The notes under the pieces: generated by a model
Databases searched by the model: none
Told to the model about the DNA's origin: nothing
Seen by the model: only the letters and a program-made list of their open reading frames with translations
Shown: piece after piece, positions 29,002 through 56,118 of the stretch
Numbering within the stretch: the stretch's first letter is position 1
How the letters are laid out: each line of letters starts with the position of its first letter
Made by a program: the position numbers and the translations under genes
Assembly: GCA_039815375.1 (NCBI GenBank)
Contig: JBCBZJ010000007.1
Coordinates: 1-64,000, forward strand
Length of the DNA stretch: 64,000 nt
From: Verrucomicrobiota bacterium
Lineage (GTDB): Bacteria > Verrucomicrobiota > Verrucomicrobiia > Opitutales > Coraliomargaritaceae
Direction of reading: 5' to 3'

Positions 29002-29075
29002 TTTCTAAACCCGTAGATCACGCAGATTTGCGCAGACTAAATCTGTTAGAATCCGTGCTCATCTGTGGATAGAAA
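29002..29075. repeat. Triple-6-mer imperfect inverted repeat A (RCAGAT class), leuB-alaS gap
   Basis: TTTCTA aaccc GTAGAT cac GCAGAT ttgc GCAGAC taa ATCTGT taga ATCCGT gctc ATCTGT gga TAGAAA. Confidence 0.8.
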
Positions 29076-29076
29076 T

Positions 29077-30177
29077 TTAAAGATTATTCAGAACGGCGTT
29101 ACCCATCGCTTTGGTGCTTACGGCATCGAGTCCGAAGGCGATATCGCCTGTGCGGGTGCCAGAGGTGACAGCTTTTTTGACGGAGGCTTCGATGGCCGCG
29201 GCAGCTTCGACCTCGCCGAAACTATAGCGGAGCATGAGGGCACCGGAAAGAATTTGCGCGCAGGGATTGGCAATGCCTTGGCCGGCTATATCCGGAGCGG
29301 TGCCACCGGATGGCTCATAAAGGCCGAAGGGGAAACCAAGACTGTTCTTTTCTGCACCGAGGGATGCAGAAGCCAGCATACCCAGAGAACCGCAGATCAC
29401 ACCCATTTCATCTGAGAGGATATCGCCGAACATATTTTCGGTAAAGAGTACATCGAACTGATTTGGGTCTCGAGCCAGCTGCATGGCAGCATTGTCGACA
29501 TACATATGAGAGAGCTCGATTTCGGGAGCGTGTTTCGCGAAGTAATCCGTCACAATCTTACGCCAGAGGACCGAAGTTTCGAGAACGTTGGCCTTGTCTA
29601 CCGAGCAAACGCGCTTGCCGCGGGACATAGCGGTGTCGATCGCGACCTGTGCAATACGTTCGATCTCGCTGGTTTTGTATACCATCGTATCGATGGCTTG
29701 CTCTTCCCCGTTATCCAAAGTCGTAGTCGCCTTTGGTTGGCCGAAATAGATGCCACCAGTGAGCTCACGAATGCAAACGATGTCGATGCCGGTAGGAATA
29801 CGCTCTTTTTTCAGTGGGGAGGCGTCGGTTAGCTCAGGATAGAGTAGGCCCGGTCTGACATTGGCGTAGAGTGAGTAGGCTTTACGGATTGGCAACAGAG
29901 CAGCACGCTCGGGTTGTTCCTTCGGTGGAAGCGTCTCCCATTTCGGGCCTCCGACCGAACCGAAGAGAATCGCCTCACTCTTGTCGCAGACCGCCTTGGT
30001 GCTATCTGGAAAGGCAACGCCATGGTTGTCGATCGCGGCCCCACCGATGTCGGCGTTCTCGTATTCGAGAGTAAAGCCGAACTTTCCGCCGGCGGCTTTA
30101 AGGATGTCTAGCGCGACCTCCATGACTTCGGGCCCGATACCATCGCCGGGTAGAACTGCGAATTTAAGCGTCTTCAT
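29077..30177 (-). CDS. leuB: 3-isopropylmalate dehydrogenase
   Basis: LPGDGIGPEV, GSVGGPKW, RELTGGIYFG, VDKANVL, NMFGDILSDE, EPSGGTAPDIAG. Confidence 0.97.
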   Translation of the reverse strand: MKTLKFAVLPGDGIGPEVMEVALDILKAAGGKFGFTLEYENADIGGAAIDNHGVAFPDSTKAVCDKSEAILFGSVGGPKWETLPPKEQPERAALLPIRKAYSLYANVRPGLLYPELTDASPLKKERIPTGIDIVCIRELTGGIYFGQPKATTTLDNGEEQAIDTMVYKTSEIERIAQVAIDTAMSRGKRVCSVDKANVLETSVLWRKIVTDYFAKHAPEIELSHMYVDNAAMQLARDPNQFDVLFTENMFGDILSDEMGVICGSLGMLASASLGAEKNSLGFPFGLYEPSGGTAPDIAGQGIANPCAQILSGALMLRYSFGEVEAAAAIEASVKKAVTSGTRTGDIAFGLDAVSTKAMGNAVLNNL

Positions 30178-30255
30178 TTATGGAAAAAGCGGGTAATCTG
30201 CCCCGCAGTTCCGACGCTTCAAGACTATATTCTTTCCTGCAAGCTTCTGCCGTGC

Positions 30256-31068
30256 TTAGCCAAGACCCTTTTCACGGCAAACATTGCAGATTGCTACGAC
30301 CTTTCCATCGACCGTTTTATATCGGAAATCGCGGTCTGGATGGGACTTTTCTGTCGCGCCACAGACATAGCAAACGTGTAAGGCCTCTTCAGCTCGCTCC
30401 TGCCTTTGCACTTCAAATTGTTTTCGGCGCTTCTTCGCTTGCATGGATTGAGCGAGCGCATCCTTGAAGAAAAGGAAGTAGTTTAACAGCGGCGCAAGTA
30501 TGGCCACGCGATCACCCATACTAGGGGCACTGATGAAGGATAGGGCAGTCATGGCGGCGACAAACCATGCGAGCCATTTTACCTTCATGGGGATGACGAA
30601 GAAAATCAGGAACTCAATGTTTGGGTTGAGTGTGGCAAAGGCGAAAAAGACACTCAAATACAGAAAATAGGGCGATATGACGATAAGCGTGCCCGGCGAG
30701 ATAAACTGCCCCAAAAATGCGCCAAAGATGCTTAGCAGTATACCGACAAGAAGAAAGACGTTGAAGCGAAAGACACCCCATGCCGACTCGAGAGCGGAAC
30801 TCATCATCCAGAAAATATACCAGAAAAAGGCTAGAAAAAGGCCTTGAATCAATGTGACTGGCACATGCGGTGGGGCTATCAGGAACGAAGCCAGACGCCA
30901 CCACTCACCGGCCAAGATCGCTTTAGGGACGAGCAAAAGGGAAGTGAACTCAACACGCCCTATCAGGATCATTGCATAGATAAACAACTGCGCGACAATG
31001 AGAACGAGGACAACATTAGGCACAGCTAAATGACCAAAGCGTTTTTCCAGCGAATCGAGGAACTTCAT
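30256..31068 (-). CDS. Conserved membrane protein (rhomboid-like topology) with C-terminal Cys-rich tail
   Basis: GEWWRLASF, LESAWGVFRFN, FFVIPMKVKWL; tail HVCYVCG...ICNVC. Confidence 0.7.
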   Translation of the reverse strand: MKFLDSLEKRFGHLAVPNVVLVLIVAQLFIYAMILIGRVEFTSLLLVPKAILAGEWWRLASFLIAPPHVPVTLIQGLFLAFFWYIFWMMSSALESAWGVFRFNVFLLVGILLSIFGAFLGQFISPGTLIVISPYFLYLSVFFAFATLNPNIEFLIFFVIPMKVKWLAWFVAAMTALSFISAPSMGDRVAILAPLLNYFLFFKDALAQSMQAKKRRKQFEVQRQERAEEALHVCYVCGATEKSHPDRDFRYKTVDGKVVAICNVCREKGLG

Positions 31069-31086
31069 TCGTAAGAGTGTTTGCGC

Positions 31087-32328
31087 CTATTCGCCCGGAT
31101 GCAACTCGATCATCGGGAGCTCCCAGATTTTTTCCTCATTGCCCTCGATGGAAAACGCAGTGGTCCAGTATCGGGTTAGGCTGCCTATTGTCCATAAGGA
31201 AGGATCATTCCATCCGTTGGTGGAAATTTCGTGAACCATGAAGCGTGCGCCACCCTCAGCTGGCCGAGTCACGAAAAGAAATTTCCCGGTCACACCGTCA
31301 GGACTGTATGGAATCAAGACTGCAGGATTCCGTTTGAAGGAACGCTCAAGTATTTTCCGACCCTCGTAGCGTGCTGTATCGCGCGCAAAGTCTTCGTCAT
31401 TTCTTGCATCTGCACGACTACACCAAAGCCATCCAGCCTTTTGTCCTGCTGCCTCGATACGCCCATATAAAGCGAGGAAGTCACCTTCATGTTTTGGCAC
31501 CACAGACATGATTTCCTCAATGAACTGATCGCTTGCGAGAGGCCCAGCTTCCTGCGGTGCAATTATTGCGATGCCGTATCCATCATAAGAGAGGTCAAGG
31601 TAGCTTTTCTTGAACTTATTGCCCCAGGGGTTGTGAAGTGAGAATTCTTCACGTCCATCATCATAACCTACAATCACACATCCGTGCCCTGAATCACCAA
31701 AAACACCAGGCCTGAAAGAGATGTAGACCGGACCTTTCTCAACCAGAGCACGCTTGATCGCCTGCGAAGGGCCAGAATTGAATTCCTCCTGTTTCCAATG
31801 GATCAATTGCCCATCAAAACCGAGCTTCTTCATCGCAAACAACATATCACGCGGATAGGTACCTTCATTGCTCTCTGACATTCCCGACGACATTCTCGCA
31901 ATTTCATACTGGTCGGTTTTTAGGCCGTGAAAACTTGCGATCATGGCTGCAGATGCCGGGACGCAGTAGTTCAACTCCTGTTTCACCATCGGAACGTTCC
32001 TGACGGTAAATCGCTTCGGTAACTCGGCAATCTTCTTCGCGGTTTCCAGGTCAGCTATTTCAGAGTTGTTGGCTTGAGGCTGCCAGGCTTCGAGTTGCTC
32101 ATTATCCGTTGTTGAGAGTTGATCGAACTGGATCGTGAATCGCATTCCGTCGGTGCGTTGCAAGCGCACGGTTCGATCCGAATGATCAATACTCAATACT
32201 TTTGCCTCAATTCTGCGACCATCGACACTTTCCCAAATTCTTGTGTCTGATGGATTTTGCGCCAGGGATGTGGCGAGTAGCTGTAGGGAAACTCCACAAC
32301 AGCAGAAAAATCTCTGCGAAAGGGGCAT
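31087..32328 (-). CDS. SHD1-domain, C39-like cysteine peptidase
   Basis: RIWESVDGRRIEAK (SHD1-like); QELNYCVPASAAM (catalytic Cys), GHGCVIVGYD (His), HNPWG. Start uncertain. Confidence 0.7.
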   Translation of the reverse strand: MPLSQRFFCCCGVSLQLLATSLAQNPSDTRIWESVDGRRIEAKVLSIDHSDRTVRLQRTDGMRFTIQFDQLSTTDNEQLEAWQPQANNSEIADLETAKKIAELPKRFTVRNVPMVKQELNYCVPASAAMIASFHGLKTDQYEIARMSSGMSESNEGTYPRDMLFAMKKLGFDGQLIHWKQEEFNSGPSQAIKRALVEKGPVYISFRPGVFGDSGHGCVIVGYDDGREEFSLHNPWGNKFKKSYLDLSYDGYGIAIIAPQEAGPLASDQFIEEIMSVVPKHEGDFLALYGRIEAAGQKAGWLWCSRADARNDEDFARDTARYEGRKILERSFKRNPAVLIPYSPDGVTGKFLFVTRPAEGGARFMVHEISTNGWNDPSLWTIGSLTRYWTTAFSIEGNEEKIWELPMIELHPGE

Positions 32329-32350
32329 TCGGGGTAGTTTAGAGCGACGA

Positions 32351-33241
32351 CTAGCGGGTAAGTAGTGCAACTTCCTTGCTGGAATTCATCACCCGCGCCA
32401 ACGTGTATTCGAAAACTCTCGTATCACCGCTGGTTGCGACCCACTCAAGATGTCGCCGAGCTGCATCAGGAGTGCCATCAGCGCGAAGCTTTAAGCCGAT
32501 GTAGGTGTGGGCTTCGGTTTCCTCAGCACTGTTAGTCACCCAACTGATCAGCTCTGAAACATCAATCTTTCCCGCCGCGTAGGCGAAAACCGGTGATGGC
32601 CATTTGCCATTTTGCTCGAGGTTCTTTAGCGCATAAGAAAGTGTTCGATTTGCACCCGAGACATCTCCTTGTTCCAGGCTTGAAAAATAGGCAATTAACA
32701 ATGGATAGCTCGATTTTTCACCATTCTGATGATACATCAATGTGGCCTGTCTGGCGGTTGCAATTGCTTCGGAAAACTCGCCACGGCACATGTGCGTCCA
32801 AGCGAGTGATTCGTAGAAGAACCCGTTGATCGGTTGATCTGCGGTGGCCTGCTCAAAAGAACTTAGCGCTTCATCAAAATCTTCCATATTGAAAGCGGCG
32901 AGACCACGGCCATTCCATGCGAAGGCATGCTGAGGATAATTTTGAACGATGATATCGTAAGAGGAAAATGCATCAGCATGCCGTTGTTGATCTGCAAAAA
33001 TCATAGCCTGCCCAAGCCTTGCGGGTAGATCTTGACCATTTGCCTCTAGGGCTTGATTGAATGCTTCTAGGGCCAGATCGGGTTTTCCTGCCTCTAGGTG
33101 GGCGTAAGCGTCGGAAACACTGGTGCTGGGCTCAATCGTGTTTTCGATTTCCTGAGATTTAAGTAGCGGGAGAACAAAAATAAAGAGAGCGAGCGGAAGA
33201 CTTGCTGTTCGTATATGGCTCTTGGCGCGTCTAAAAAACAT
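32351..33241 (-). CDS. TPR protein, NlpI-like
   Basis: Several TPRs (AWNGRGLAAF, FYESLAWTH); C-terminal WPSPV...EAHTYIG...FEY resembles NlpI. Confidence 0.75.
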   Translation of the reverse strand: MFFRRAKSHIRTASLPLALFIFVLPLLKSQEIENTIEPSTSVSDAYAHLEAGKPDLALEAFNQALEANGQDLPARLGQAMIFADQQRHADAFSSYDIIVQNYPQHAFAWNGRGLAAFNMEDFDEALSSFEQATADQPINGFFYESLAWTHMCRGEFSEAIATARQATLMYHQNGEKSSYPLLIAYFSSLEQGDVSGANRTLSYALKNLEQNGKWPSPVFAYAAGKIDVSELISWVTNSAEETEAHTYIGLKLRADGTPDAARRHLEWVATSGDTRVFEYTLARVMNSSKEVALLTR

Positions 33242-33248
33242 CTTAATA

Positions 33249-34430
33249 TTAATAATCAGCTTTGGCTAAATCCGAAGAGATGTCAAATGATGGCAAGTTT
33301 TGTTCCAGCTTGCTTGCTTTGTCTAAAAGAGTCGAAAAATGATCGATTGTTTGGTCCCAAGGATACTTTTCGGCACTAGCACGCGCTGCGCGTCGGACTG
33401 TTTTTAAGTTCAAATGTGTGCTGACAACCTCGCTCACGAGCTGACGGAAGGCCTCCTCGTCCCCCAAAGGTGATAAATAGCCGTTTTCGCCGTGAACAAT
33501 GAATTGATGCCCCGCCGCATAATCACATGTCACTACAGCAAGTCCACTGGCGAGGGCCTCAATAACAACGTTTCCGAACGTTTCGCTTTCACTGCCGAAA
33601 ACAAAGATGTCCGCAGAAGCGTAGTGTGCGGCCAGATCTTCATCAAATCGCATGCCTGCGAATTGCGCCTCGGGCCATTTGCGCTCCAGTTTCTTTAGGA
33701 CCGGGCCGTCACCAACCACAATCATCTTGAGCTCAGGGCAAGTCTCACGGGCCTGTTGCCAAGATTCCAGCGCCAAGGGAATCTTCTTTTCTGCTGCCGC
33801 CCGACCCACATAGATGGCAACCGGTGTGTTTTCATCGGCACCCCAGCTTGCTCGCAGTTTCTGGCTACGTTTTTTAGGGTCAAAGAGTCGAGTATCTGCG
33901 CCACGGCCAAGGTATGCAAGGCGCTCGACTCCGCTCTTTTCCAAACGATCAATCAAGTTATGGTCCGGAACTGTGGTCAGCGCGCATTTATTATGGAACC
34001 ATTTCAGGTAGCGCATCATTACCCGTCCTGCCCAGGCTGCACCATAATCGGCGCAGTAGTCCTGAAAATTGGTGTGAAAGGTCGAAGTGGCGGGCAGGCC
34101 AAGTTTGCCTGCTGCTCGAAGCGCAGAGAATCCAAGTGGTCCTTCGGTTGCAATGTGGATAATGTCTGGCTGGTAGTCTTCGAAAGCATGTTCGAGGAGT
34201 CCTGGAGCTGGAATACCAATCTTGAGACCCGGATAATTCGGGATTGGAAGACCAAAGACCTCAAGCAGGGAAAGGCTCTCTGATTCAATATCCGGTGCGT
34301 CGGATCGACGCGGTTTAACTAGAAGAACTTTATGGCCGAGCTCGATTAGGCCGCGAACAAGGCGCTGATTTGTCATCGCGACTCCGTTGACTTCCGGAGG
34401 GTAGGTCTCGGTAACGAGGGCAATATTCAT
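33249..34430 (-). CDS. GT4 glycosyltransferase
   Basis: VTETYPPEVNGVA, HIATEGPLG, FHTNF, SETFGNVVIEALASG (EX7E). Confidence 0.9.
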   Translation of the reverse strand: MNIALVTETYPPEVNGVAMTNQRLVRGLIELGHKVLLVKPRRSDAPDIESESLSLLEVFGLPIPNYPGLKIGIPAPGLLEHAFEDYQPDIIHIATEGPLGFSALRAAGKLGLPATSTFHTNFQDYCADYGAAWAGRVMMRYLKWFHNKCALTTVPDHNLIDRLEKSGVERLAYLGRGADTRLFDPKKRSQKLRASWGADENTPVAIYVGRAAAEKKIPLALESWQQARETCPELKMIVVGDGPVLKKLERKWPEAQFAGMRFDEDLAAHYASADIFVFGSESETFGNVVIEALASGLAVVTCDYAAGHQFIVHGENGYLSPLGDEEAFRQLVSEVVSTHLNLKTVRRAARASAEKYPWDQTIDHFSTLLDKASKLEQNLPSFDISSDLAKADY

Positions 34431-34540
34431 CGATAGATCCTTTAAATTGGTGTGATTGCTACAGGTGGCAAGAAAAGATCTGATCGGCCCGGGTAAGATT
34501 ACATATTGAAAGGATGGATCAGTCCTGCATCGTGTTGCTG

Positions 34541-35173
34541 ATGGTTATTGAATCTCAGGAGTTGCCGCCAATAGGAACGAATGCCTTTGCATTGATCGAT
34601 CAAAAACGTAGCGAGTGCGTGATTATTGATGCGCCGTCTGAGGCCTACGATTGGGCCAAGGGTGTAGCTGACCGGTATGCCTGCAGGATCGTTGCACTGG
34701 TTTTGACTCACGGACACTGGGATCATATTCTCGATGGGTGGAAGTTTGTTGAGGCGGGCATCCCAACTTATGGCCATGCCAGTGATACGAAAATGTTTTC
34801 GGAACCCTCAAGGATGTCGAGCTATGCTATGCCGGGTATTACTTTTAACGCTGTCAGAATCGACAACTGGATCTCCGGCGGTAGAACGCTGGAACTGCTT
34901 GGAACGGAAATGGAAATCCGTCACGTGCCTGGACATTGCCCGGGCAATATTCTCGTTTATTTGAAATCCGCTGCGGCTGTTTTTGTTGGCGACGCCATCT
35001 TTGCGGGAAGTATAGGTCGCTACGATCTTCCTGGAGGTGACTTTAGTGTATTGGAAAAATCGATACGTGAGCAAATTTACAGCTTGCCTGACAAGACAAC
35101 GATCTACCCCGGACATGGCCCAGCAACGAGTGTCAGTGCCGAAAAACAAAGTAACCCTTATGTGCGCCCATGA
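34541..35173 (+). CDS. MBL-fold metallo-hydrolase (glyoxalase II-like)
   Basis: THGHWDH, PGHCPG, GDAIFAGSIGRYD, PGHG. Start moved to ATG 34541. Confidence 0.9.
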   Translation: MVIESQELPPIGTNAFALIDQKRSECVIIDAPSEAYDWAKGVADRYACRIVALVLTHGHWDHILDGWKFVEAGIPTYGHASDTKMFSEPSRMSSYAMPGITFNAVRIDNWISGGRTLELLGTEMEIRHVPGHCPGNILVYLKSAAAVFVGDAIFAGSIGRYDLPGGDFSVLEKSIREQIYSLPDKTTIYPGHGPATSVSAEKQSNPYVRP

Positions 35174-36291
35174 GTTTGGCAGTTCAGGATGATGAGCGGT
35201 TCATGGCTCACGCCATTGAATTGGCTCGTCAGGCATGGGGACGGACGCATCCAAATCCGATGGTTGGTGCCGTCGTTGCAGACGCTGGCAAGATCATCGC
35301 GGAAGGTTGGCATAAAGCAGCCGGCCAGCCGCATGCAGAAGTGGAGGCTCTTGCTTCCCTTGCCGAACAGCCTTCGGAGAATGCATCGCTTTATGTGACT
35401 CTAGAGCCTTGTAGCACCTGCGGGCGAACGGGTGCCTGCACTAAAGCGATAATCAAATCCGGGATTCGACGTGTCGTAATCGGTGCGGTCGATCCGAATC
35501 CTGAACATGCGGGAGCGGGTTTGGATATCCTGCGCAATGCGGGCATCGAAGTTGTTTCAGGGGTGCTGGAAAATAAATGTGCCGACCTTAATCTCATCTT
35601 CAATCACTGGATTGTCGATAAGACGCCCTTCATTGCTTCAAAGATGGCGATGACTTTAGATGGAAAGTTCGCGGCATCTTCAGGCCATTCACAATGGGTA
35701 ACTGCTGAAGCAGCGCGTGAAGATGTGATGCATTGGCGACGGTATTTTCCTGCGATTGCAGTTGGGGCGAACACCATCATCAAGGACGACCCGAGCCTAA
35801 CGAGCCGGATCAAAGAATCTGTTTTCTGTCCCACACGATTCGTATTTGACCGCCACCTCAAGACTGCGGATTGCGCACGCTTGCCAAGACTCTATTCGGA
35901 TCAATACAAGAATCATACGGTTGTGTTGTGTCTTAAAAGTGCCGACCGCACGCGTAAGAAGGCTATACTCGAATTAGGGCTGGCGCTCTGGGAACTGAAT
36001 GAGGAGGACGGCCACCTGGATTGGTCGCAACTCCGGCAGCTCTGTGCTCAGGAAGGTATCATCGGTATCTACGTAGAATCAGGGCCAACGCTTGCTACTG
36101 AATTAATCGAAAATCGAAAGGTGGATTATTTATTTATCTACAAGGCACCGAAGTTCATGGCTGATTCTGTTGCACCGGGCATCGGCTCAAAGCGAGGCTC
36201 AGCTAAAATGAGCGATGCATTCGAGTTATTGGGTGTCCATCACGAGATTTTCGGTGATGATGTTCTGATCAGGGGGCGGCTTGCGAAGTGA
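35170..36291 (+). CDS. ribD: Bifunctional riboflavin deaminase/reductase
   Basis: [17 protein letters not shown]...[21 protein letters not shown]. Confidence 0.95.
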
Positions 36292-36875
36292 AGACTCTGA
36301 TCATCGCAACAGGCAACACACATAAAACCGGGGAGTTCGCTCAGCTCCTGGCGAGCTTAAATTATTCTGTGCAATCAGCAGCAGTCTGCGGCGGCATGCC
36401 TTATGTCGAGGAGAACGGTTCGAGCTTCGCTGCTAACGCCGAGCTTAAAGCGAAAGCACTTCGCGCTGCTGCGCCAGCAGAAGCATGGATTCTAGCTGAC
36501 GATTCCGGTTTGGAAGTGGATGCACTCAACGGTGCCCCGGGAATCTACTCTGCTCGCTATGCAGGAGAGAAAGCCAGCGATAAGGACAATTTAGAAAAGC
36601 TACTCGCTGCGCTATCCGGAGTTCTTGAAGCGAAACGAACGGCACGTTTCCGCTGCGCGCTTTGCGTGATTGGGCCGGACGGCAGAAGCCACTTCTATGA
36701 GGGATCCTGCAAAGGTTACATCAGCCTTAGTCCAACCGGTTGTACAGGTTTTGGCTATGACCCTGTTTTTATACCAGAAGGCTACAGTCAGAGTTTCGCG
36801 GAGCTCGGAGAATCTGTTAAGGATCGGCTCAGCCACCGCGCAAAAGCAGTCGCCGCATTTATGGCAGAAGCCTGA
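36288..36875 (+). CDS. rdgB: Non-canonical purine NTP pyrophosphatase
   Basis: [44 protein letters not shown] overlap with ribD. Confidence 0.95.
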
Positions 36876-37560
36876 TCGGACTAAGCTCCAGCTTTTTGAC
36901 TGCGGCTTCAAAGACTGAATCATCGCAAGCTGTAACGTTTATGCGTTCCTCGCTCTTGCAATGGGTGAAGGTCAACTCGGTCGCGCGTAACATCAGCATT
37001 TGAGAACCGCACCATTTACGGAAGAATCGATTTTGCACACCATCGCCATGCCGAGTATCTCCAATGATAGGATGTCGTATGTGGGCGAGATGTCGACGGA
37101 GTTGATGTTTACGACCCGTTTTGGGACGCAATTCAAGATAAGAAAAGCGGGCAGTTGGATAGCGCCCAAGAGATTCATCCAGCTCACTCTGTTTCAGCAC
37201 TCTGTACTCAGTGAATGCCGATTGCACCTTTTCTGGCTCTTCCTCGGAACGCAGATCATAATTAATGCTTCCGGATTCCTCCGTCCAACCGCGTACTACA
37301 GCACGGTATGTTTTCGCACAAGCTTGCCGGGCAAATTCATTTTGAGTGAAACGCAACGCATCTTGGTTGAGGGCAAATAGTAGAACACCACTGGTCGGTC
37401 GGTCCAACCGATGACAGGGATACACCAGCTGACCGATCTGCTTTCGAAGAAGCTGAAGGACAAAGACCGTCTCAGAGGCATCCAGAGGACTTCGATGGAC
37501 GAGGAGGCCAGCGGGTTTGTCGATCACTACGTAATCCTGGTCTCTGTAGAGAATGTTCAT
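36859..37560 (-). CDS. truC: tRNA pseudouridine synthase C-like (RluA family)
   Basis: [44 protein letters not shown]. Start at 37560 or 37596. Confidence 0.85.
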
Positions 37561-37660
37561 CTGTATTTCGGCATCCATTGCCTTGAATTGTATCATTTCA
37601 ATTACGTTTAGTTTAAAGTTGCATTATCCGATCAGATGTAGTGACATTAAACTAGTATAA

Positions 37661-38572: not shown

Positions 38573-38654
38573 AGGCTGCGAACATTTCAGAAATCCGGCT
38601 CGACAAAATCGAACGGCCTGAGACCCTTTCCGCTTCACTAAATCTAGCGGAACC

Positions 38655-39695
38655 ATGCAAGAAGAGTTAAATGCTATCGTAGCGGGCGTCCGGGACAAAG
38701 CTCCCGGCATTGTCACGCGCGCAGAATTTGAGGCCTACAAAGCCACCATTTCAGGGCCTAAGGGCTCTCTTACTGAAGTCATGAAGGGCATGGGCAAAGT
38801 GCCCAAGGAAGATAAGCCCACGATGGGTAAGCTCATCAACGAGGCTAAGACTGCCGTCACGGCTCAATTTGATAAGGTCATTGAACGCCTCGAAGCTGCA
38901 GAGCTCGCTGCGAAACTAGGCCCGGCTATCGACCCAAGTCTTCCGACCCCGGATTCAGCCCGGGGCACAATTCATCCGATCGCTCAGGTGCGTGATGAAG
39001 TCGTCGACCTGTTTCGCAGGATCGGTTTTTCCGTCGCCGAGGCCACTGAAGTGGAAACGGAGCATTACTGCTTCGATGCGTTAAACATCCCTTCCGATCA
39101 CCCGGCCCGCGACATGCAGGATTCTTATTATCTGCCAGAGGAACTCAGCGTCAGTAATGTCGCTAAACACGGTGAAGAGAAATACCTCCTCCGCACTCAT
39201 ACCTCGACTGTGCAAATCCGCACCATGCTGAAGGAAGAGCCACCAATTCGTATCGTCGCTCCCGGCCGTTGCTTCCGTCGTGATACACCTGACGCAACAC
39301 ATAGCGCGAATTTTCACCAAATTGAAGGCCTTTATGTCGATAAAGATGTCAGTCTACTCGACCTCAAGGCGACGCTGGACCACTTCGTCAAAACCATTTT
39401 CGGGCCAAAGGCCAAGACACGCCTCCGTCCGAGTTTTTTCCCCTTCACTGAGCCGAGCTTCGAGATGGACTTCTTCTCGCCGGACCTCGGCAAGCTGAGC
39501 AACAAATGGCTTGAGATCATGGGCTGCGGCATGGTCGATCCGGAGGTATTCAAGGCGGTCAACATCGATCCGGAAGTTTACACAGGCTACGCTTTCGGCA
39601 TGGGAATCGAGCGCATCGCGATGATCCTACAGGGGGTCGATGATATCCGCTATTATTATCAGAACGACGTCCGCTTCCTTAAACAATTTGCATGA
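38655..39695 (+). CDS. pheS: Phenylalanine--tRNA ligase alpha subunit
   Basis: HPARDMQD, LLRTHTS, FHQIEG, FPFTEPS, GFG-like AFGMGIER, DVRFLKQF. Confidence 0.98.
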   Translation: MQEELNAIVAGVRDKAPGIVTRAEFEAYKATISGPKGSLTEVMKGMGKVPKEDKPTMGKLINEAKTAVTAQFDKVIERLEAAELAAKLGPAIDPSLPTPDSARGTIHPIAQVRDEVVDLFRRIGFSVAEATEVETEHYCFDALNIPSDHPARDMQDSYYLPEELSVSNVAKHGEEKYLLRTHTSTVQIRTMLKEEPPIRIVAPGRCFRRDTPDATHSANFHQIEGLYVDKDVSLLDLKATLDHFVKTIFGPKAKTRLRPSFFPFTEPSFEMDFFSPDLGKLSNKWLEIMGCGMVDPEVFKAVNIDPEVYTGYAFGMGIERIAMILQGVDDIRYYYQNDVRFLKQFA

Positions 39696-39790
39696 CGTTT
39701 CTTTTAGTTAACGGCTATCTCATCAATTTTAATGTTCCCTTGTTGAAAGACGGCATTCGCCGAGTCGTGAACAATCACCCTGCATCTTAA
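39692..39790 (+). pseudogene. 3' remnant of a GxxExxY-family gene (32-codon ORF)
   Basis: ATG overlaps the pheS stop (ATGA). Reads MTFLLVNGYLINFNVPLLKDGIRRVVNNHPAS*; G.LINFNV.LLKDGI.R.VN is the C-terminal signature I recognise from GxxExxY proteins. Confidence 0.8.
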
Positions 39791-39804
39791 TTTTCTCCAT
39801 TCTC

Positions 39805-39833
39805 CTCTGTGTCCTCCGCAGAACTCTGCGGTT
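39805..39833. repeat. Right arm only of triple-6-mer element B (RCAGAG class), pheS-pheT gap
   Basis: CTCTGT gtc CTCCGC agaa CTCTGC ggtt, starting 15 nt after the remnant stop and ending 20 nt before the pheT ATG. Reverse-complement-like to the left arm of element C. Confidence 0.75.
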
Positions 39834-39850: not shown

Positions 39851-42313
<2,463 letters not shown>

Positions 42314-46132: not shown

Positions 46133-46267
46133 TGAGCTTAAGAGCCGACAGATTCGTTGGAATTCCCGCGGCATCGAAAGATTGAGCCTCTAAGCACTCT
46201 GAAGTCAGACGTATTTTATTTTAATGGGTAGTTCTTGTCCGTAAAGATTGATTACCTGAGGCTGAAC

Positions 46268-46410: not shown

Positions 46411-46599
46411 TTTACCTCGTCGACAAGACGATCCAGCACTCGGTTTTGACTGCTGTCGGCTTAAAAGAGAGGCAAGAGTAAAAGACCCGACGTCTTTATA
46501 GGGCTCTCAAACTCAGTTACAGTTATCCTCATAGTCAGCCATGTGGCGCTGCAGTGATCCCGTGCCAGATGTCGAACGGTTGCTAGAATCTAAAGAATT

Positions 46600-47595: not shown

Positions 47596-47614
47596 GGTAT
47601 AAAATGGCTTTATT

Positions 47615-48772: not shown

Positions 48773-49788
48773 TCAGGTTCTTTAAAATAGCGGACCGTGG
48801 GCAAAAGCTGTGACTCGGGTAGTTCGCCCAGTTCCTCATGAAAAATACGTTCGGCTTCTTCAAGACTCTCGGCAGACCGTAGCTTCATGATACCGTGCGA
48901 TACGGTTTTCGCCATCACGGCCGGATCGAAAAACAACATTACCGCAGCGAGAGGACCGACATGAACCGGTGTGCCCCACGGGCCATGGGTGTTGACCCGC
49001 CGCAGGCCGAGCTCGCCCTTCGCCGCAAGCGGTGCCAGTGGCTCGACCGGATCGGGATAAGCCTCGCAGGCTGCGATCATTTCGGCAACGTCGCCCTGGG
49101 TTAAACCATGAGCTCCGAGATAACCGCCAGCTGCCATGACAACGCCAACGCGCTCATCGAGTTCGGAAATTTGCATTTCACCATCACAACCGTAACCGGA
49201 TACCCCGTAAAAAACCGGGCAGGGCAGTTCAAGTAGTGCACCGATCGACATGAAGTCGACCAATGAGGTATGCGCGAGTTGGACTTCGTCACCGCGATGA
49301 AAGGAGTCGGAGCCAATGTCGACGCCGACGACCAGATCAATCTGCCGCTCTTCAACGAACTGTTTCAATCCGTGCGCGAGCCCGACCGGACCATTGAGAA
49401 GACTTGCGACGAATGGAGTGCCCGGAAGCATATCGGCAAGAACAGCCTCTGCCGGCTGGCAACCATTCAACTGACTATTTGTTGTGACTTTGCGAATATT
49501 CGGTGCCAACAAATCGGTCCTGCTGAGTTGGTCGATATCGTAGAGGGTCGGCCCGAGAACGGAGACACCAAAAACATCGGATTGCGGTTTTCCATCCGGC
49601 ATCCACCACTGGCAATTCACACCGCCAATGTAAACCTCCTCAAAGTTAAGTTGCCTGAAGAGTCGACCGAGCGGGATGCCCTGTATAACGTCGCCGCCGC
49701 CTCCGAGACCCATAATAAGTGCACGCTTGCTTCTCATCGCCACCTCAAGGAGTGACGGCCGAATCTTGGGTGCGGATTCCTCTTTCAT
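48769..49788 (-). CDS. DUF1152 family protein
   Basis: GLGGGGDV, VGVDIGSDS, SLVDF, GYGCDGE motifs. Confidence 0.75.
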   Translation of the reverse strand: MKEESAPKIRPSLLEVAMRSKRALIMGLGGGGDVIQGIPLGRLFRQLNFEEVYIGGVNCQWWMPDGKPQSDVFGVSVLGPTLYDIDQLSRTDLLAPNIRKVTTNSQLNGCQPAEAVLADMLPGTPFVASLLNGPVGLAHGLKQFVEERQIDLVVGVDIGSDSFHRGDEVQLAHTSLVDFMSIGALLELPCPVFYGVSGYGCDGEMQISELDERVGVVMAAGGYLGAHGLTQGDVAEMIAACEAYPDPVEPLAPLAAKGELGLRRVNTHGPWGTPVHVGPLAAVMLFFDPAVMAKTVSHGIMKLRSAESLEEAERIFHEELGELPESQLLPTVRYFKEPE

Positions 49789-49809
49789 GTATCAGAAAGT
49801 ATAGCTGGA

Positions 49810-50562
49810 TTAATCAAGTGAATGATCGGTTTTCCACCGGAAGATACGTTGGTCAGCCACACGGATGCCGATGTAGAAGACGACCGAAAGCAAACTGGCA
49901 ATCAGGGCGACCGCGTAGAGTCGATCTGCACGATACTCCGTAGTCGATTGAACGATCAAATAGCCAAGACCCTCGCTGGCAAAAAACCACTCAGCGATGA
50001 TAGCTCCAATGATGCTTCCGGTGAATGCAATTTCGTGCGCAGCCATGTAAAAGGGCAGCGCTGATGGCCAGCGAACCTTTAAAAAGACCTGCCAGCGCGA
50101 GGCGTTCAAGGTCCGCATCCGGTCCAGCAGGACATCCGGTGTGGCACGAAGTCCTTTCTTCAAGTTGGCAAGTAGTGGAAAGAAAGTAACCAGAACGACG
50201 ATAATAAGTTTCGGCCCGATCGTATCCCCCATTGTCACGATCAGGATACTCGCGATCGCGACATAGGGAATATTCCGGATAATTACCGTCCAGGGTGTGA
50301 TGAAATGCTCCAGCCCCCGAACGTATAAAAAGGAAACCGCCAGACTGACCGCGAGCAGGTTTGAAATGATATAACCTAGAATTGCAACTTTGAGCGTTGC
50401 TACGGTATGGCCGAAAAGGCTGGTGCGTTCCTCCCACAAAAGCTCCGCAACCATCTGCGGCGGCGGTAAAATGGAAGAGGGGAGCTGACTCAACGCAGTC
50501 GCCACGAACCAGACGATGGGAAGGGAAACAAGAACGAGAAGGTAGCTCTTGAATTCTCTCAT
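49810..50562 (-). CDS. ABC permease (SsuC/TauC-type)
   Basis: ILPPP, IPYVAIA, FFPLL, NASRWQVFLKVRWPSALP, GAIIAEW...GLG. Confidence 0.92.
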   Translation of the reverse strand: MREFKSYLLVLVSLPIVWFVATALSQLPSSILPPPQMVAELLWEERTSLFGHTVATLKVAILGYIISNLLAVSLAVSFLYVRGLEHFITPWTVIIRNIPYVAIASILIVTMGDTIGPKLIIVVLVTFFPLLANLKKGLRATPDVLLDRMRTLNASRWQVFLKVRWPSALPFYMAAHEIAFTGSIIGAIIAEWFFASEGLGYLIVQSTTEYRADRLYAVALIASLLSVVFYIGIRVADQRIFRWKTDHSLD

Positions 50563-51344
50563 TTCGCCATTCCTTCCGTGATCTCGTAGAGCTTACTTCG
50601 AATCTCGGCAACCAACTCCAAAAAGTCTTTTTCGCTGCGCAACTTCCGCGAGCGCGGTTGGGCAAAAGGGATGTTGATAATCTCTGAAATACGCCCCGGG
50701 CGGGGTGAGAGTAGGGCGATACGGTCTGCCAGCATAACGGCCTCGTCGACACTATGGGTAATCAAGACTGCCGTTTGCTTGCTCTCCTGAAGAATCGAAC
50801 TCAGCCATTCGCCAAGTAGCTCCCGCGTCAACTCGTCGAGTGCTCCAAAAGGCTCGTCCAGCAAGACCAGCGACGGATCATGGACCAGTGCACACGCGAT
50901 GTTAGCGCGTTGACGCATCCCGCCGGAAAGTTCGTGCGGGTAAGCGTCCATGAATTCACCAAGCCCAAACTGCTCAAGGATCTCCTCGACACTCCGTTGT
51001 GGTTGAGCACCGGTCACTTCGAGAGAAAGGGCAACATTGCGTCGCGCACTGCGCGAATCAACCAGGGCCGGTTGTTGGAAAGCGACACCAACCTGTGCGC
51101 CACGGCAAGCCTCTTCCGGGGACACTCCAAAGACCTGAACCTTTCCGTCAGTGGGAGTTTCCAGACCGGCGAAAATACGCAGCAGGGTCGTTTTTCCGCA
51201 GCCCGAAGGCCCGATCAGCGCGACGAATTCACCTGAATCGATACTAAGGTTGATATCGCGCAACGCCTCGACTGTTCCATCGAAGGATTTTGACAGTTGA
51301 GAGGCAACGACTGCTCCGCCTGGGCTCATGTTTGGTGCAAACAT
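50559..51344 (-). CDS. ABC ATP-binding protein (SsuB/TauB-type)
   Basis: GPSGCGKTT, LSGGMRQR, LLDEPFGALD, ITHSVDEA, SPRPGRI. Confidence 0.95.
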   Translation of the reverse strand: MFAPNMSPGGAVVASQLSKSFDGTVEALRDINLSIDSGEFVALIGPSGCGKTTLLRIFAGLETPTDGKVQVFGVSPEEACRGAQVGVAFQQPALVDSRSARRNVALSLEVTGAQPQRSVEEILEQFGLGEFMDAYPHELSGGMRQRANIACALVHDPSLVLLDEPFGALDELTRELLGEWLSSILQESKQTAVLITHSVDEAVMLADRIALLSPRPGRISEIINIPFAQPRSRKLRSEKDFLELVAEIRSKLYEITEGMAK

Positions 51345-51457
51345 CTAGGAAGAGTGGGGATCAGGACCTTCTTCGTCGGCTTCCAAGGCAGTAACCAACA
51401 TGGCATAGTGTCAGGAAAAAGTAGCAGTGAGCCTTACCCGTAAACATAGCATCGGGG

Positions 51458-51473
51458 AGCTTTTTCCATGCCA
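51458..51473 (-). promoter_or_regulatory. Possible sigma-54 promoter for the ABC operon
   Basis: Minus strand TGGCATGGAAAAAGCT, GG-N10-GC; the TT before GC is replaced by AA. Confidence 0.35.
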
Positions 51474-51547
51474 ATCGCCCTTTATGCCACTACGAAAGGT
51501 CTCGGTCGCACGGTCTGCTCCGCCCTTCAATCCGGAGGGTCCGACCT

Positions 51548-51563
51548 TGGCTTGGATTCTGCT
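51548..51563 (+). promoter_or_regulatory. Possible sigma-54 promoter for the deaminase-P450 pair
   Basis: TGGCTTGGATTCTGCT, GG-N10-GC, about 75 nt before ATG 51637. Confidence 0.35.
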
Positions 51564-51636
51564 CAACAGTCATTGTGGCCCACCGTTCGACCTTTTTCTT
51601 AAAACTTCGTTTAGGCCCCTTCTGGCATATGATTCG

Positions 51637-52674
51637 ATGAGTTCGATGGAGAGACCTGGTGTTACCCAAGCAAGCGAATTGCAGAAGTTTCGGGAACTTA
51701 TGCAGAAGCTTCCAAAAACGGATATGCATTTGCACATTGAGGGCTCCATCAGCCTTTCTGAATATGCTGAGGTCAACGAGATCAAGGCCGGCTGGGAGCC
51801 ACCGGGATGGGGCCTGGATTATCGTTATCCGAACTTTACTGTTTTTGAAGAATTCATTTTAGGTTATGCCGATCAATGGTTCAACAGTCCCGAACGCTAC
51901 GCCCGCTCGGCGAAAAGTTTATTCGAACGAAAGATCGCGGAGGGTGTTCGCTACCTCGAATGCAGTTTTGCCTTCATTGTTTGCGAGCAACAGGAACTTC
52001 CGGTTGATGAGATTGTTGATGCGATTATTTCAGTCGTGCCGAATGGGCTGCATGTCCGTCTTTTCTGCGGACTTCATCACACGAGTTGGTCCACGAAGAC
52101 GCGACCCGCTCTTGAGCGGTTGATTGAACTCAACGCTCTAACCGGGATCGATCTGCACGGTCCTGAGCTCTATCCGGTTCGTGAGTGGATGTTGGACTAT
52201 TGGCCAGCGGCACAGGATCGGGGTAAATTCACTAAAGCACATGCGGGCGAGCTGGGAGGTGCATGGCATGTCACCGAGGCGGTCGAAAAGCTTGGCGTGC
52301 GTCGTATCGAGCATGGGTTTCGAGCCATTGAAGACGATGCCGTCGTCGATTTACTACGTGCTGAGAATGTCCTCCTCGATGTCTGTCCAATTAGCAATTA
52401 CAAGCTTCAGACGGTGAACTCGTATCAGGACCATCCGATGATTCAGTTGCTTGAAAGAGGTATTTCAATGACCATCAATACCGACGACCCTTTCATTTTT
52501 GGGAATACGATCACCGACGAATTCGATGTGCTTGCAAGAGAAACTTCGCTTTCAAAAAAGACACTTTTGCAACTGGCCCGCAATGGTTTCGAATATGCCC
52601 TTCTTTCAGATGAAGAGCGATGCGTTTTACTAGCTGAATTTGATGAGACGGTAGAGGGGGTGGCCTTATCTTGA
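51637..52674 (+). CDS. Adenosine/adenine deaminase family protein
   Basis: LPKTDMHLHIEG, AHAGE, RIEHG, CPISN, NTDDP all intact. Start moved to ATG 51637 (51646 possible). Confidence 0.9.
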   Translation: MSSMERPGVTQASELQKFRELMQKLPKTDMHLHIEGSISLSEYAEVNEIKAGWEPPGWGLDYRYPNFTVFEEFILGYADQWFNSPERYARSAKSLFERKIAEGVRYLECSFAFIVCEQQELPVDEIVDAIISVVPNGLHVRLFCGLHHTSWSTKTRPALERLIELNALTGIDLHGPELYPVREWMLDYWPAAQDRGKFTKAHAGELGGAWHVTEAVEKLGVRRIEHGFRAIEDDAVVDLLRAENVLLDVCPISNYKLQTVNSYQDHPMIQLLERGISMTINTDDPFIFGNTITDEFDVLARETSLSKKTLLQLARNGFEYALLSDEERCVLLAEFDETVEGVALS

Positions 52675-52677
52675 GCC

Positions 52678-54045
52678 ATGGCTGAAACCATCGAAGTTGA
52701 AGCTGTTGCACCGGGAGAAGCGGCTAAGCCAGCCTCCAAAATTCCTTTTTTTGCTCCAGAGGGATCGCTCGACGGCTCTTCCGACGAGGCTTTTCGTCAA
52801 AATCCAACGCATGTCTTCGTCGAGGGCTATCGACGCTTCGGTCCTATATTCAAAGTCCGTCTGTTCGGAACGGAACAGATTGCAATGGGTGGTCTTGATG
52901 CGAACGAGTTCACCTGGAAGAATCACGAATTGTGGGATTACTTTCGCACGAACCGGCACTTCAGAGAACAATTTAGCGACCGGTATCTAAACCAACTCGA
53001 AGGAAAGCCTTACTCGTCAAAACGCCGCCGGATCGGTCAGGCGTTCCGCCCCAGCATGTTGATGTCACACACGGATCAAATGAGTAAAGCGGTCTTTCGG
53101 GAAATTGATCGTCTGCCGGATGGCGTAACGAACCTTAGAGTTTTTTGCATGCGGGTTATGATCGCGATGATATCGCGGGTTTTGATCCAGAAAGACCTGC
53201 CCGATGGCATGGACGAGACCATGGCAATCAGCAATAAGGAGATGCTGAAGTCGGCTAGTCTGGGCTGGAAACGCTGGCTCTGGTATTACTACCCGCCGAA
53301 GCGGTTACGTCGTCGAAAGGTCTTTCGGTTTCTCGGGTCCGTCCTTGATGAGAGAGAACGCAAAGTTGGACCCGGCAAGGAGGATATGCTCGCGGCCGTC
53401 TTGATGGGAAGCCAACCAAACGACCCGGAAATCCCGCGTTACGAGAAGATTCATGACCTTTCGCAGCTGTTCATGGCTGGGTCCACTACTTCGTCGATGA
53501 TCGTTGCCTGGGCACTGCTTCATTGCTACAAGGATAGGGAATGGTTGAAGGAACTCAGAACGGAGCTGGAAGCCTGGGATCCATTTGGGTTCGAATCGAT
53601 CGATCCGTTTCCCAGGCTTAGGGCAACTTGTCTCGAGATTGAGCGTTTACGGCCGGGTGTGCCGGTTTTCAACCGGATCACAGCGAAGTCCTTTACCTAC
53701 GGTGGTTATGAAATCCCGCAGGGAGTCGATGTGCTTCACCTCCATACGCTAACTCACTTTCTTGAGGAGATCTACCAGGACCCCGATCACTTCAAGCCAT
53801 CCAGATTCGTTGAAAACCCGGATTTACCGCCGAAGCATGCGCACGGAACCTTCGGGGGAGGCAAACATCGCTGTATCGGCAGCCCACTCGCACGAATCCA
53901 ACCGCCTCTTTTTGTGGCTAATGTGATCTCTCGCTACGATTTGGAGTTTATGACCGAACCAAGCATGGGCGCGAAATACGATGCAGCGGTCGCTCCGGCG
54001 GAAGAACCTCTGCTTGTACGTTTTCATCGGCGGGAATCAACTTAG
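52678..54045 (+). CDS. Cytochrome P450
   Basis: FGPIFK, I-helix AGSTTS, EIER (ExxR), FKPSRF, heme ligand FGGGKHRCIG. Confidence 0.95.
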   Translation: MAETIEVEAVAPGEAAKPASKIPFFAPEGSLDGSSDEAFRQNPTHVFVEGYRRFGPIFKVRLFGTEQIAMGGLDANEFTWKNHELWDYFRTNRHFREQFSDRYLNQLEGKPYSSKRRRIGQAFRPSMLMSHTDQMSKAVFREIDRLPDGVTNLRVFCMRVMIAMISRVLIQKDLPDGMDETMAISNKEMLKSASLGWKRWLWYYYPPKRLRRRKVFRFLGSVLDERERKVGPGKEDMLAAVLMGSQPNDPEIPRYEKIHDLSQLFMAGSTTSSMIVAWALLHCYKDREWLKELRTELEAWDPFGFESIDPFPRLRATCLEIERLRPGVPVFNRITAKSFTYGGYEIPQGVDVLHLHTLTHFLEEIYQDPDHFKPSRFVENPDLPPKHAHGTFGGGKHRCIGSPLARIQPPLFVANVISRYDLEFMTEPSMGAKYDAAVAPAEEPLLVRFHRREST

Positions 54046-54177
54046 GAGCATGGTGTGATCCACGAAGATTCGGACAGCAGATCCCTTGCGCGGTAAAAAA
54101 GCATAAAGCAATCCTATCGAATCGGGGGTTGCAGAGAAAGCCGGTGGCTATTTCTTGGTCGTTTTTAACAAAACATC

Positions 54178-54471
54178 ATGTCCACAAAACCACACATCGA
54201 TATCGACTACGTCGCAAATCTTGCACGCATCGAACTTTCAGACGACGAAAAAGCCAAGCTCGGTGGTCAACTCGACGACATCCTCGGTTATTTCGAGAAG
54301 CTTAACGCGGTTGATGTCGACGGCGTTGAGCCCATGGCCCACGCCCAAGCCGTCTACAACGTCTGGCGCGAAGGCGATGAAGCAGGGGAGACCTACGCCC
54401 CAGAAGTGCTCAAGAAGATGGCCCCTGAATTTCGCGACGGTCAGGTCGTCGTCCCAAAAGTTGTCGAATAG
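54178..54471 (+). CDS. gatC: Asp/Glu-tRNA amidotransferase subunit C
   Basis: IDYVANLARIEL...ILGYFEKLNAVDVDGVEP...VPKVVE; precedes gatA. Confidence 0.95.
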   Translation: MSTKPHIDIDYVANLARIELSDDEKAKLGGQLDDILGYFEKLNAVDVDGVEPMAHAQAVYNVWREGDEAGETYAPEVLKKMAPEFRDGQVVVPKVVE

Positions 54472-54483
54472 CCCAAATCTATA

Positions 54484-54573
54484 AATCGCAGAGAGCACAG
54501 AGGACGCAGAGAGTCCATAGAGCTCATGCATACAAAACTTTCTCATACTCCGCGCTTCCCGCGAACTCAGCGT
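54484..54573. repeat. Triple-6-mer imperfect inverted repeat C (RCAGAG class), gatC-gatA gap
   Basis: Left GCAGAG agc ACAGAG gac GCAGAG (54488, 54497, 54506); 36-nt spacer; right CTCCGC gct TCCCGC gaa CTCAGC (54548, 54557, 54566). Confidence 0.8.
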
Positions 54574-54578
54574 CGAAA

Positions 54579-56045
54579 ATGTCTGAATTACATTTCAAAA
54601 CTATCACCGAACTCTCTGCTTCGCTCGAAGCGGGTGAGCAGACTTCGGTAGAACTCACCCAAGCCATTATCGACCGCACCGCCTCGGTTGATGGCAAGGT
54701 AAAAGCCTTCATCTCGTACGATGCGGAGGACGCGCTTGCTCAAGCAAAGACCTCCGATGAGCGTCGTGCAGCAGGCAAGGCGCTCGGCCCGCTCGACGGT
54801 ATCCCTATTGGTATCAAGGATGTGCTTACCGTGAAGGACCAGCCCGTCCGCTGCGCATCGAAGATGCTGGAGAACTATATTTCTCCGTTCGATGCGACTT
54901 GTATCGCTAAGCTCCGTGAAGCAGGTGCCATCATTTGGGGGCGTCTCAATATGGACGAGTTTGCCATGGGATCCTCGACGGAAAACTCAGCTTACCAAAC
55001 CACAGCGAATCCCTGGGACCTTGAAACCATCCCCGGCGGTTCTTCCGGCGGTAGTGCAGCGGCGCTTGCGGCAGGTGAAGCGATCGCCACTCTCGGCACA
55101 GATACCGGTGGTTCCATTCGTCAACCGGCTGCGCTTTGCGGTGTTGTTGGCATGAAACCGACCTATGGTCTGGTTTCCCGTTATGGCCTAGTGGCTTTTG
55201 CATCGTCCTTGGATCAGGTCGGTCCCTTTGCACGAACAGTTGAAGACGCTGCCATCCTAATGGAGGCCATGCTCGGCAAGGACGACCTCGATTCGACTTC
55301 CATCGAACCGCAGGGGGAGACGAACTACGCGGCCGCCCTTAAGGAAAAGAAGGGCCCGTGGAAGCTCGGCGTGCCGCAGGAGTTCTTTGGCGAAGGTATC
55401 GACCCGGAAGTGAAGGCCAGTATCGAGAAGGCCATTGACTGGTATAAGTCCCAGGGCTGTGAAATCGTGGATATTTCGCTCCCACACTCCGATCTGGCCG
55501 TGCCGGTTTACTATATTGTCGCGACGGCGGAGGCGTCCTCCAATCTTGCACGTTTCGATGGCGTGCGCTACAGCCACCGCAGTAAGGACGTCAACGATGC
55601 GCTCACGCTATTCACCAAGAGTCGGGGCGAGGGCTTTGGGGACGAAGTAAAGCGCCGCATCATACTAGGCACCTACGTGCTTAGCTCCGGTTACTACGAC
55701 GCCTACTACCTGCGCGCGCAAAAGGTTCGTCGTCTCATCCTTGGCGATTTCGAAAAAGCTTTCGATCAGGTCGACGCGATTCTGACGCCGACTTCACCTA
55801 CACCGGCCTTCAAGCGAGGCGAGCGCAGCGATGATCCACTCGCGATGTATCTCAGCGACATCTATACGATCTCGGTTAATCTCGCTGGTCTTCCCGCTAT
55901 TTCCGTTCCGAGTGGTTTCACGGAAAGTGGATTACCCATTGGTCTGCAAGTCATTGGCAAAGCCTTCGGCGAAGCTGACATGTTCGCCGTAGCGCATGCC
56001 TTCGAGCAAGCGCACGACTACCATAGGCAAACTCCAAATCTTTAA
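54579..56045 (+). CDS. gatA: Asp/Glu-tRNA amidotransferase subunit A
   Basis: NMDEFAMGSSTENS, PGGSSGGS, GTDTGGSIRQPA, EVKRRIILGTYVLSSGYYDAYY. Confidence 0.98.
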   Translation: MSELHFKTITELSASLEAGEQTSVELTQAIIDRTASVDGKVKAFISYDAEDALAQAKTSDERRAAGKALGPLDGIPIGIKDVLTVKDQPVRCASKMLENYISPFDATCIAKLREAGAIIWGRLNMDEFAMGSSTENSAYQTTANPWDLETIPGGSSGGSAAALAAGEAIATLGTDTGGSIRQPAALCGVVGMKPTYGLVSRYGLVAFASSLDQVGPFARTVEDAAILMEAMLGKDDLDSTSIEPQGETNYAAALKEKKGPWKLGVPQEFFGEGIDPEVKASIEKAIDWYKSQGCEIVDISLPHSDLAVPVYYIVATAEASSNLARFDGVRYSHRSKDVNDALTLFTKSRGEGFGDEVKRRIILGTYVLSSGYYDAYYLRAQKVRRLILGDFEKAFDQVDAILTPTSPTPAFKRGERSDDPLAMYLSDIYTISVNLAGLPAISVPSGFTESGLPIGLQVIGKAFGEADMFAVAHAFEQAHDYHRQTPNL

Positions 56046-56057
56046 TCATTTTGATCG

Positions 56058-56118
56058 CTCACAAATTTCACGAATTTTCACAAATTCTGGATTAGTTGGA
56101 ATGCTTGTAATTCGTGGG
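56058..56118. repeat. Triple-6-mer imperfect inverted repeat D (ACRAAT class), gatA-gatB gap
   Basis: ctc ACAAAT ttc ACGAAT tttc ACAAAT tctgg ATTAGT tggaatgcttgta ATTCGT ggg; middle right-hand unit degenerate. Confidence 0.65.

Follow-up and report, generated by a model that had tools for sequence, protein, structure and literature searches.

The four short repeat elements at the leuB-alaS, pheS-pheT, gatC-gatA and gatA-gatB junctions within the first 64,000 nucleotides of contig JBCBZJ010000007.1 (Verrucomicrobiota bacterium, assembly GCA_039815375.1; this whole stretch is the window, and we call the elements A to D) appear to be gene-less or broken copies of a cassette that encodes a small GxxExxY protein and is bracketed by mirrored arrays of three heptamers. 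The reading that we favor, with modest confidence, is that this is a selfish cassette acting at the DNA level through a nuclease that recognizes its own arms. The cargo protein would bind its own type of arm on DNA and cut or nick there, and repair of the break would copy the whole cassette to the corresponding junction in related species by homing-like allele replacement, giving it drive. Empty arm pairs would be seeded at other junctions in trans, much as REPINs are.

An intact cassette consists of a left arm, the GxxExxY gene and a right arm, with each arm made of three heptamers of consensus CRCNNAK repeated at a 9-10 bp period, in which C1, C3 and A6 are held at 91-99% among family arms. 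The genome of the window (G000) carries three full GxxExxY genes (L001-L003), all over the TIGR04256 and PF13366 (PDDEXK_3) cut-offs and all bracketed by arms, one of them at gyrB-gyrA, one at metK-ahcY and one within a tRNA array. Sampling 60 genomes of the family gave 175 GxxExxY matches, including this genome's three, and 138 distinct near-full genes were analyzed. Both arms were present at 76/137 family cassettes and at none when the flanks were shuffled, and paired arms were likewise found at 35/80 loci in distant bacteria and archaea, against 0 in the shuffled sets. The arrangement with the gene inside the inverted repeat dominates (62 family and 21 distant loci); in a minority layout the gene lies between two complete hairpins, sometimes with direct repeats, and the order right-gene-left was seen at 6 family and 5 distant loci. 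Where both neighbors were called, the cassette was co-directional with both in 97/126 cases, and in that orientation it would be expressed from the operon promoter. Neighbors in relatives include metK-ahcY, purM or cmk with plsC, rseP-ispG, gyrB-gyrA, znu genes and restriction-modification genes.

Several loci elaborate on this plan. The intact cassette at gyrB-gyrA has several stacked right arms (L001 1230-1460), and within 15 kb there are four empty copies with arms of this type (G000 C12:18211-23107), among small genes that by eye resemble toxin-antitoxin pairs. A GxxExxY cassette interrupts the tRNA array at L003 (429-2241), which comprises at least 12 genes, and G038 and G010 have near-identical versions of this cassette. 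Arms are nested or stacked at L115, L100, L027 and L091, with a newer cassette within or beside an older one, which suggests that older elements serve as targets. At L321, L341, L342, L325 and L045 the gene sits between two near-identical hairpins or repeated right-left junctions, such as a circular intermediate or a tandem duplication would leave.

The four junctions of the window change state among relatives. At leuB-alaS (52 genomes) we found 16 full, 3 partial, 2 empty and 1 one-armed copies, 12 four-helix-bundle cassettes, 1 other repeat and 17 junctions with none; at pheS-pheT (61 genomes) there were 5 full, 1 partial, 9 empty, 6 one-armed, 4 other and 36 none; at gatC-gatA (54 genomes) 5 full, 2 partial, 9 empty, 3 one-armed, 5 other and 30 none; and at gatA-gatB (54 genomes) 13 full, 1 partial, 8 empty, 3 one-armed, 2 other and 27 none, where "full" takes in a few genes with a stop or frameshift and "none" takes in sub-threshold relics. 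Junctions of at most 35 nucleotides (nt) numbered 6, 14, 16 and 17, respectively. The preliminary description of this DNA had proposed full, deleted and empty states of one cassette between co-directional genes, and each of these states indeed occurs at the same junctions in relatives. The four-helix-bundle cassette is unrelated to GxxExxY and alternates with it at leuB-alaS; all 12 of its genes there match PF05635 (Avd-like), 10 of them over the cut-off, and they are bracketed by inverted arrays with a 7-nt period (for example L098, L116), as is another four-helix-bundle gene that fills the gap between two other genes at L004 (1390-1890). We also observed empty forms with 6-nt and 11-nt periods (L007, L012, L083) and, in one relative, a gatC-gatA junction filled by a weak PIN-domain open reading frame (ORF; L241, G002).

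In the window itself, all four elements lie in the gaps first described for them, between genes identified with Pfam. Element A is on the minus strand between leuB (29077-30177) and alaS (26192-28990), and its left arm, upstream in the leuB-to-alaS direction (29041..29067), has three CRCRGAT-type heptamers at period 10, followed after a 3-nt spacer by the right arm (29013..29037). The other elements are on the plus strand, as are their neighbors. Element B, between pheS (38655-39695) and pheT (39854-42313), has only a right arm (39805..39833, heptamers 39805-39830), of CGCAGAG type at period 9 with a terminal GGTT. A GxxExxY remnant had been noted before it, and this is borne out by a 32-codon ORF overlapping the pheS stop (39692..39790, plus strand), in which the final ~26 codons form a C-terminal stub left from a GxxExxY gene of the alpha clade; 20 C-terminal profile positions are matched, the stub is below the reach of NCBIfam and had no match there, and its best DNA match is a full cassette at gatA-gatB of a relative (G052). 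Element C, between gatC (54178-54471) and gatA (54579-56045), has a left arm of CGCAGAG type at period 9 (54487..54511) and, across a 36-nt spacer, a right arm (54548..54572); both are closest to the alpha cassettes of gatA-gatB, and 0/5 full gatC-gatA cassettes share the type. Element D, between gatA and gatB (56146-57612), pairs a left arm of CACGAAT type with periods 9 and 10 (56060..56085) with a degenerate right arm (56091..56116) that fell under the profile threshold in the junction survey. The next start codon follows after ~21 nt for A, ~23 for B, ~6 for C and ~30 for D.

By arm type, stub B and element C belong to the alpha clade and D, through its left arm, to the clade found at metK-ahcY in relatives. 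The arms of element A match, less specifically, the type that full cassettes have at leuB-alaS in relatives, and the full GxxExxY cassettes with CRCRGAT arms at that junction make it likely that A is a deletion relic. None of the four resembles well the three intact cassettes of this genome, whose arm types differ, so A-D have probably been orphaned and are decaying. One assembly carries B, C and D on a single contig, although it may be the source of this DNA. Usable junction variants were sought in DNA contigs and none was obtained; in run X4, one contig of low depth shows 17 extra bases at window position 54572, the end of C's right arm. No RNA data set was listed as containing this DNA, which has no bearing on whether it is expressed.

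The elements occur far above chance. They had been described as built of 6-mers, and a strict 6-mer scan of the genome returned 0 matches, missing even A-D; the actual unit is a 7-mer. We used instead a looser, sequence-agnostic scan (three 7-mers at 9-10 bp, then their complement), which yielded 15 paired elements across the 3.56-Mb genome, with A and D among them but not B or C, against 0 in 2 genome-sized Markov controls. A profile scan at a score of at least 17 recovered 74 non-coding arms, among them those of A-D and a fifth, against 10-16 in 5 intergenic controls. The claim that geometry rather than sequence is conserved thus holds for geometry and fails for sequence, since the CRCNNAK consensus is conserved as well. 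Nor are these the only copies, although no clear one had been noted in other gaps: strong arms mark 29 loci genome-wide, and a fifth, one-armed copy of CGCTTAT type follows gatB (57834..57876, arm 57850-57876, plus strand), its arm preceded by a small hairpin. This copy (window 57770-57880) is part of a multi-copy unit of ~130-170 nt, with 14 other BLAST pieces in G000 (C4:24918, C11:421120, C12:144189-146215, C28, C38, C58:11618, C62). The unit has a small outer hairpin, often lies beside runs of small same-strand genes and resembled an ORF-less integron cassette; under strict criteria, no attC-like palindrome turned up near the CGCTTAT-type copies.

The position of the four copies just 5' of alaS, pheT, gatA and gatB had suggested a special tie to tRNA charging, and would suit a T-box- or attenuator-like element with which the host regulates these genes. 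This tie does not survive the wider view. Aminoacyl-tRNA junctions make up only 4/29 strong-arm loci, full cassettes sit at gyrB-gyrA, at metK-ahcY and in the tRNA array and, in relatives, at many other junctions, many relatives are element-free at the junctions in question, no Rfam family matched in the window and there is no terminator-like site at C or D. Host regulation is largely refuted by this distribution, and we give it almost no credence. Co-directional gaps were not clearly enriched among strong-arm loci of this genome (18/25 vs a 64% background).

We then turn to the cargo, whose family is listed as of unknown function with multiple transfers in the cited part of PMC3424549, a part that makes no mention of repeats flanking GxxExxY genes. 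A domain search of the enclosed genes matched only TIGR04256 and no GIY-YIG or HNH family. The GxxExxY motif is present in 132/138 proteins and a D..ExK motif in 127/138, and G32, D75 and K87 are invariant in 97 sequences. Within clades the median proportion of nonsynonymous differences (pN) is 0.08-0.17 and that of synonymous differences (pS) is saturated at ~0.8, which places the protein under purifying selection. A structure model (pLDDT 91) shows a PD-(D/E)xK core, and its top structural matches are mostly PD-(D/E)xK enzymes, led by the BpuSI nuclease domain (Z 7.6), with Cas4 (7.4) and Hjc (6.3) also among them; when solved structures were searched by sequence, the only match was T7 endonuclease I, at a non-significant E of 0.18-0.26. 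Going by the model, the cargo is predicted to be a PD-(D/E)xK fold protein and a nuclease. In a quick tree, arm type tracks cargo clade, and most clades are faithful to one junction, with the alpha clade found at gatA-gatB, pheS-pheT and rseP-ispG.

Of the two mechanisms that had been offered for the repeats, the data accord more with phased protein-binding sites than with an RNA stem. The arm borders are complementary, but pairing on the mRNA strand is weak and without enrichment of G-U: among heptamer mismatches on that strand we counted 18 G-U vs 34 A-C in full cassettes and 15 vs 36 in empty copies, with a non-significant 25 vs 36 in distant taxa (p 0.20). Transversions are the largest mismatch class in full cassettes, and A, C and D fold on the mRNA strand no better than shuffles (z -1.6, -1.4 and -0.05). 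In the family set, mismatches between left and right arms cluster at heptamer positions 2 and 4 with C1, C3 and A6 fixed, as expected of a recognition motif. These results bear on an alternative in which the element acts as RNA, like the intervening sequences (IVSs) of rRNA: the arms would pair in the operon mRNA, an RNase III cut would release or insulate the cargo, and the stem would be under selection. The layout is that of an ORF-bearing IVS, with complementary borders and RNase III excision (as given in the cited part of PMC4990558), the four-helix-bundle family of IVSs alternates with GxxExxY at leuB-alaS in 12/52 genomes, and in full cassettes each linker tends to match the one it would pair with (0.58 vs 0.32; distant set 0.50 vs 0.34), which fits a paired stem or conversion between arms. 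Set against this are the shortage of G-U relative to A-C in full and empty family copies, the transversions, the weak folding of A, C and D and the lack of any partner-specific linker signal in empty copies (6.07 vs 6.14). An RNA-level element would also leave the triple phased heptamers and the spread unexplained, and we regard it as unlikely.

The antisense strand pairs better in 54/75 decided family cases, suggesting a bottom-strand folding preference like that of attC sites, which was absent in distant taxa. The attC sites of integrons have an invariant AAC...GTT core, and the gene lies outside a single downstream hairpin. Were the arms single-strand recombination sites of this kind, worked by an integron integrase or similar enzyme, GxxExxY would be a gene cassette, and G000 does encode three integron integrases over the TIGR02249 cut-off (C10:102309-103247, C51:51440-52378, C24:38892-39821); the minority of genes that lie between two hairpins would fit as well. 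Unlike attC, however, the arms carry AAC in about half of cases (outside the first unit in only 29/60 left and 27/60 right arms) and the gene is mostly inside the inverted repeat, which, along with the missing antisense bias in distant taxa, makes this account very improbable. A weak arm lies ~250 nt downstream of the C10 integrase.

The empty copies also speak for a DNA-level cassette. Their spacers measure 18-22 nt in 14/27 copies, a concentration reached in 0 of 20000 uniform draws. Empty copies match full cassettes of their own genome better (33.3/42) than those of permuted genomes (30.9/42; p 0.0075, n=24), and close matches between empty and full copies (at least 37/42) sit at another junction. 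Two arm types are commoner genome-wide where the cognate gene was seen (p 0.017 and 0.009; means 10.2 vs 5.0 and 7.3 vs 1.4), and arm totals were 1 and 3 across 14 genomes without the gene. These tests are weakened in that kin are not independent, the gene-less genomes are also small and streamlined, some genes went unlisted, cognate sets were assigned by hand, and 138 distinct genes were analyzed vs 175 matches. These patterns can be held up to a passive account, in which cargo is carried by homologous recombination between conserved flanks, the arms are autoregulatory operators and the empties are products of decay. Such decay does occur, as seen in internal deletions of the cargo that keep both arms (L021, L022, L101); the start codon lies at most 11 nt from the end of the left arm in 43/58 cassettes, clades are mostly tied to one junction, and gene tails are mosaic whatever the junction holds. 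Random decay, however, would not produce the 18-22-nt spacer peak, at pheS-pheT all 9 empty copies differ in type from the 5 full cassettes seen there, which are alpha, and the swapped tracts are only tens of bases long. We judge passive carriage to be rather improbable, more so than the RNA-level account.

Two recent swaps between species are visible at gatA-gatB. The sister species G016 and G049 are 91-98% alike in the flanks of this junction, yet they hold different cassettes there, and each shares a near-identical cassette with a more distant species (G040/G016 and G029/G049); the near-identity extends ~30 nt into gatA and 25-65 nt into gatB, in pairs whose distal flanks are 78-81% identical. 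Comparable tail identity was found in 0.2% of 496 background pairs. Since even a chimeric assembly would require the same shared tail, at least the tail seems to have moved. The gatA 3' end is also identical or nearly so in G037/G025 and G032/G054 despite different junction content, which points to a hotspot of recombination where this essential gene ends. As to the vehicle, one query of 50,697 phage records gave 0 matches, IMG/VR yielded 2 loci, and the gene is on 8/72,556 plasmids, all predicted non-mobilizable; this scarcity suggests delivery as chromosomal DNA, for example by natural transformation.

Beyond the caveats on the empty-copy tests, a number of observations weigh against homing by an arm-cutting nuclease. 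The nearest enzyme by fold is not clear, with no Foldseek match at E 0.001, mismatches concentrate much less at positions 2 and 4 among distant taxa, and the partner-matched linkers would suit a stem. Cognate empty copies persist beside intact genes, so they cannot be efficiently cut. In most same-clade pairs the cargo is as old as, or older than, its flanks, being clearly younger in 4/85 and clearly older in 41/85. Gene tails show no deep association with cargo clade (0.68 vs 0.68), and the signature of resistant alleles known from T4-like phages is therefore missing. No target-site duplication was established by eye, and sister genomes show older relics replaced rather than clean insertion.

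If the favored mechanism is true, the cassette would be a mobile element outside all classes compared below, swapping the ends of essential genes between species, and would supply a nuclease of very small size whose natural variants differ in specificity, each matched to a heptamer array that can be read. The cassette may perhaps, and we put this forward tentatively, represent an undescribed class of chromosomal selfish element in bacteria and archaea: a PD-(D/E)xK nuclease of ~125 residues would assemble on phased arrays of its cognate heptamers, home between species to a single operon junction with tens of bases of flank, and seed gene-less arm pairs ~20 bp apart as landing sites for later cassettes. 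Four-helix-bundle cassettes, and hence rRNA IVSs, would then be a parallel system in the same niche. The literature searched, which lies largely outside subscription journals and excludes supplements, contained no description of a repeat-armed GxxExxY cassette. This work offers a testable role for a very abundant family of unknown function, one clade of which is estimated to occur in ~22,000 stored stretches of the GTDB collection, accounts for a common type of unannotated intergenic repeat and ties the long-puzzling four-helix-bundle genes of IVSs to the same junction niche.

Insertion sequences and their derivatives, the miniature inverted-repeat transposable elements, have terminal inverted ends with repeated sub-sites and come in autonomous and gene-less forms. 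Unlike them, the cassette has no DDE, HUH, serine or tyrosine transposase, carries a cargo of ~125 residues, mostly keeps each clade to one junction and has shown no duplication. A closer likeness is to the free-standing homing endonucleases of T4-like phages (seg, mob), which, in the cited part of PMC2988022, are promoter-less nuclease genes lying patchily between conserved genes, where unrelated genes replace one another at one site, flanks are co-converted and copies decay to remnants. The cassette differs in being chromosomal, in bacteria and archaea, in its PD-(D/E)xK rather than GIY-YIG or HNH cargo and its bracketing arms, and in having tracts of tens of bases and gene-less copies at other sites. 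With REPINs, as the cited part of PMC3337134 describes them, it shares two inverted arms, preferred spacers, extragenic placement and sequence groups of arms, and REPINs are thought to be moved in trans by a nearby nuclease, a likeness to the empty copies. Unlike in the REPIN/RAYT system, each arm is three direct heptamers and not one palindrome, copies number tens and not hundreds, and the gene lies inside the inverted repeat and itself moves between species; the enclosed enzyme is GxxExxY and no HUH tyrosine transposase, in a genome not searched for an unlinked RAYT. With ORF-bearing 23S rRNA IVSs, according to the cited part of PMC4990558, it shares a small ORF between complementary borders that occurs sporadically at conserved sites, and the PF05635 four-helix-bundle family uses the same junctions here, with 7-nt-period arms. 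Unlike them, it lies between protein or tRNA genes (no rRNA is in the window or at L001-L004), its cargo is under strong purifying selection and there is no sign of selection for pairing on the mRNA strand. The cassette thus blends traits of homing endonucleases, REPINs and IVSs, yet fails one defining test of each.

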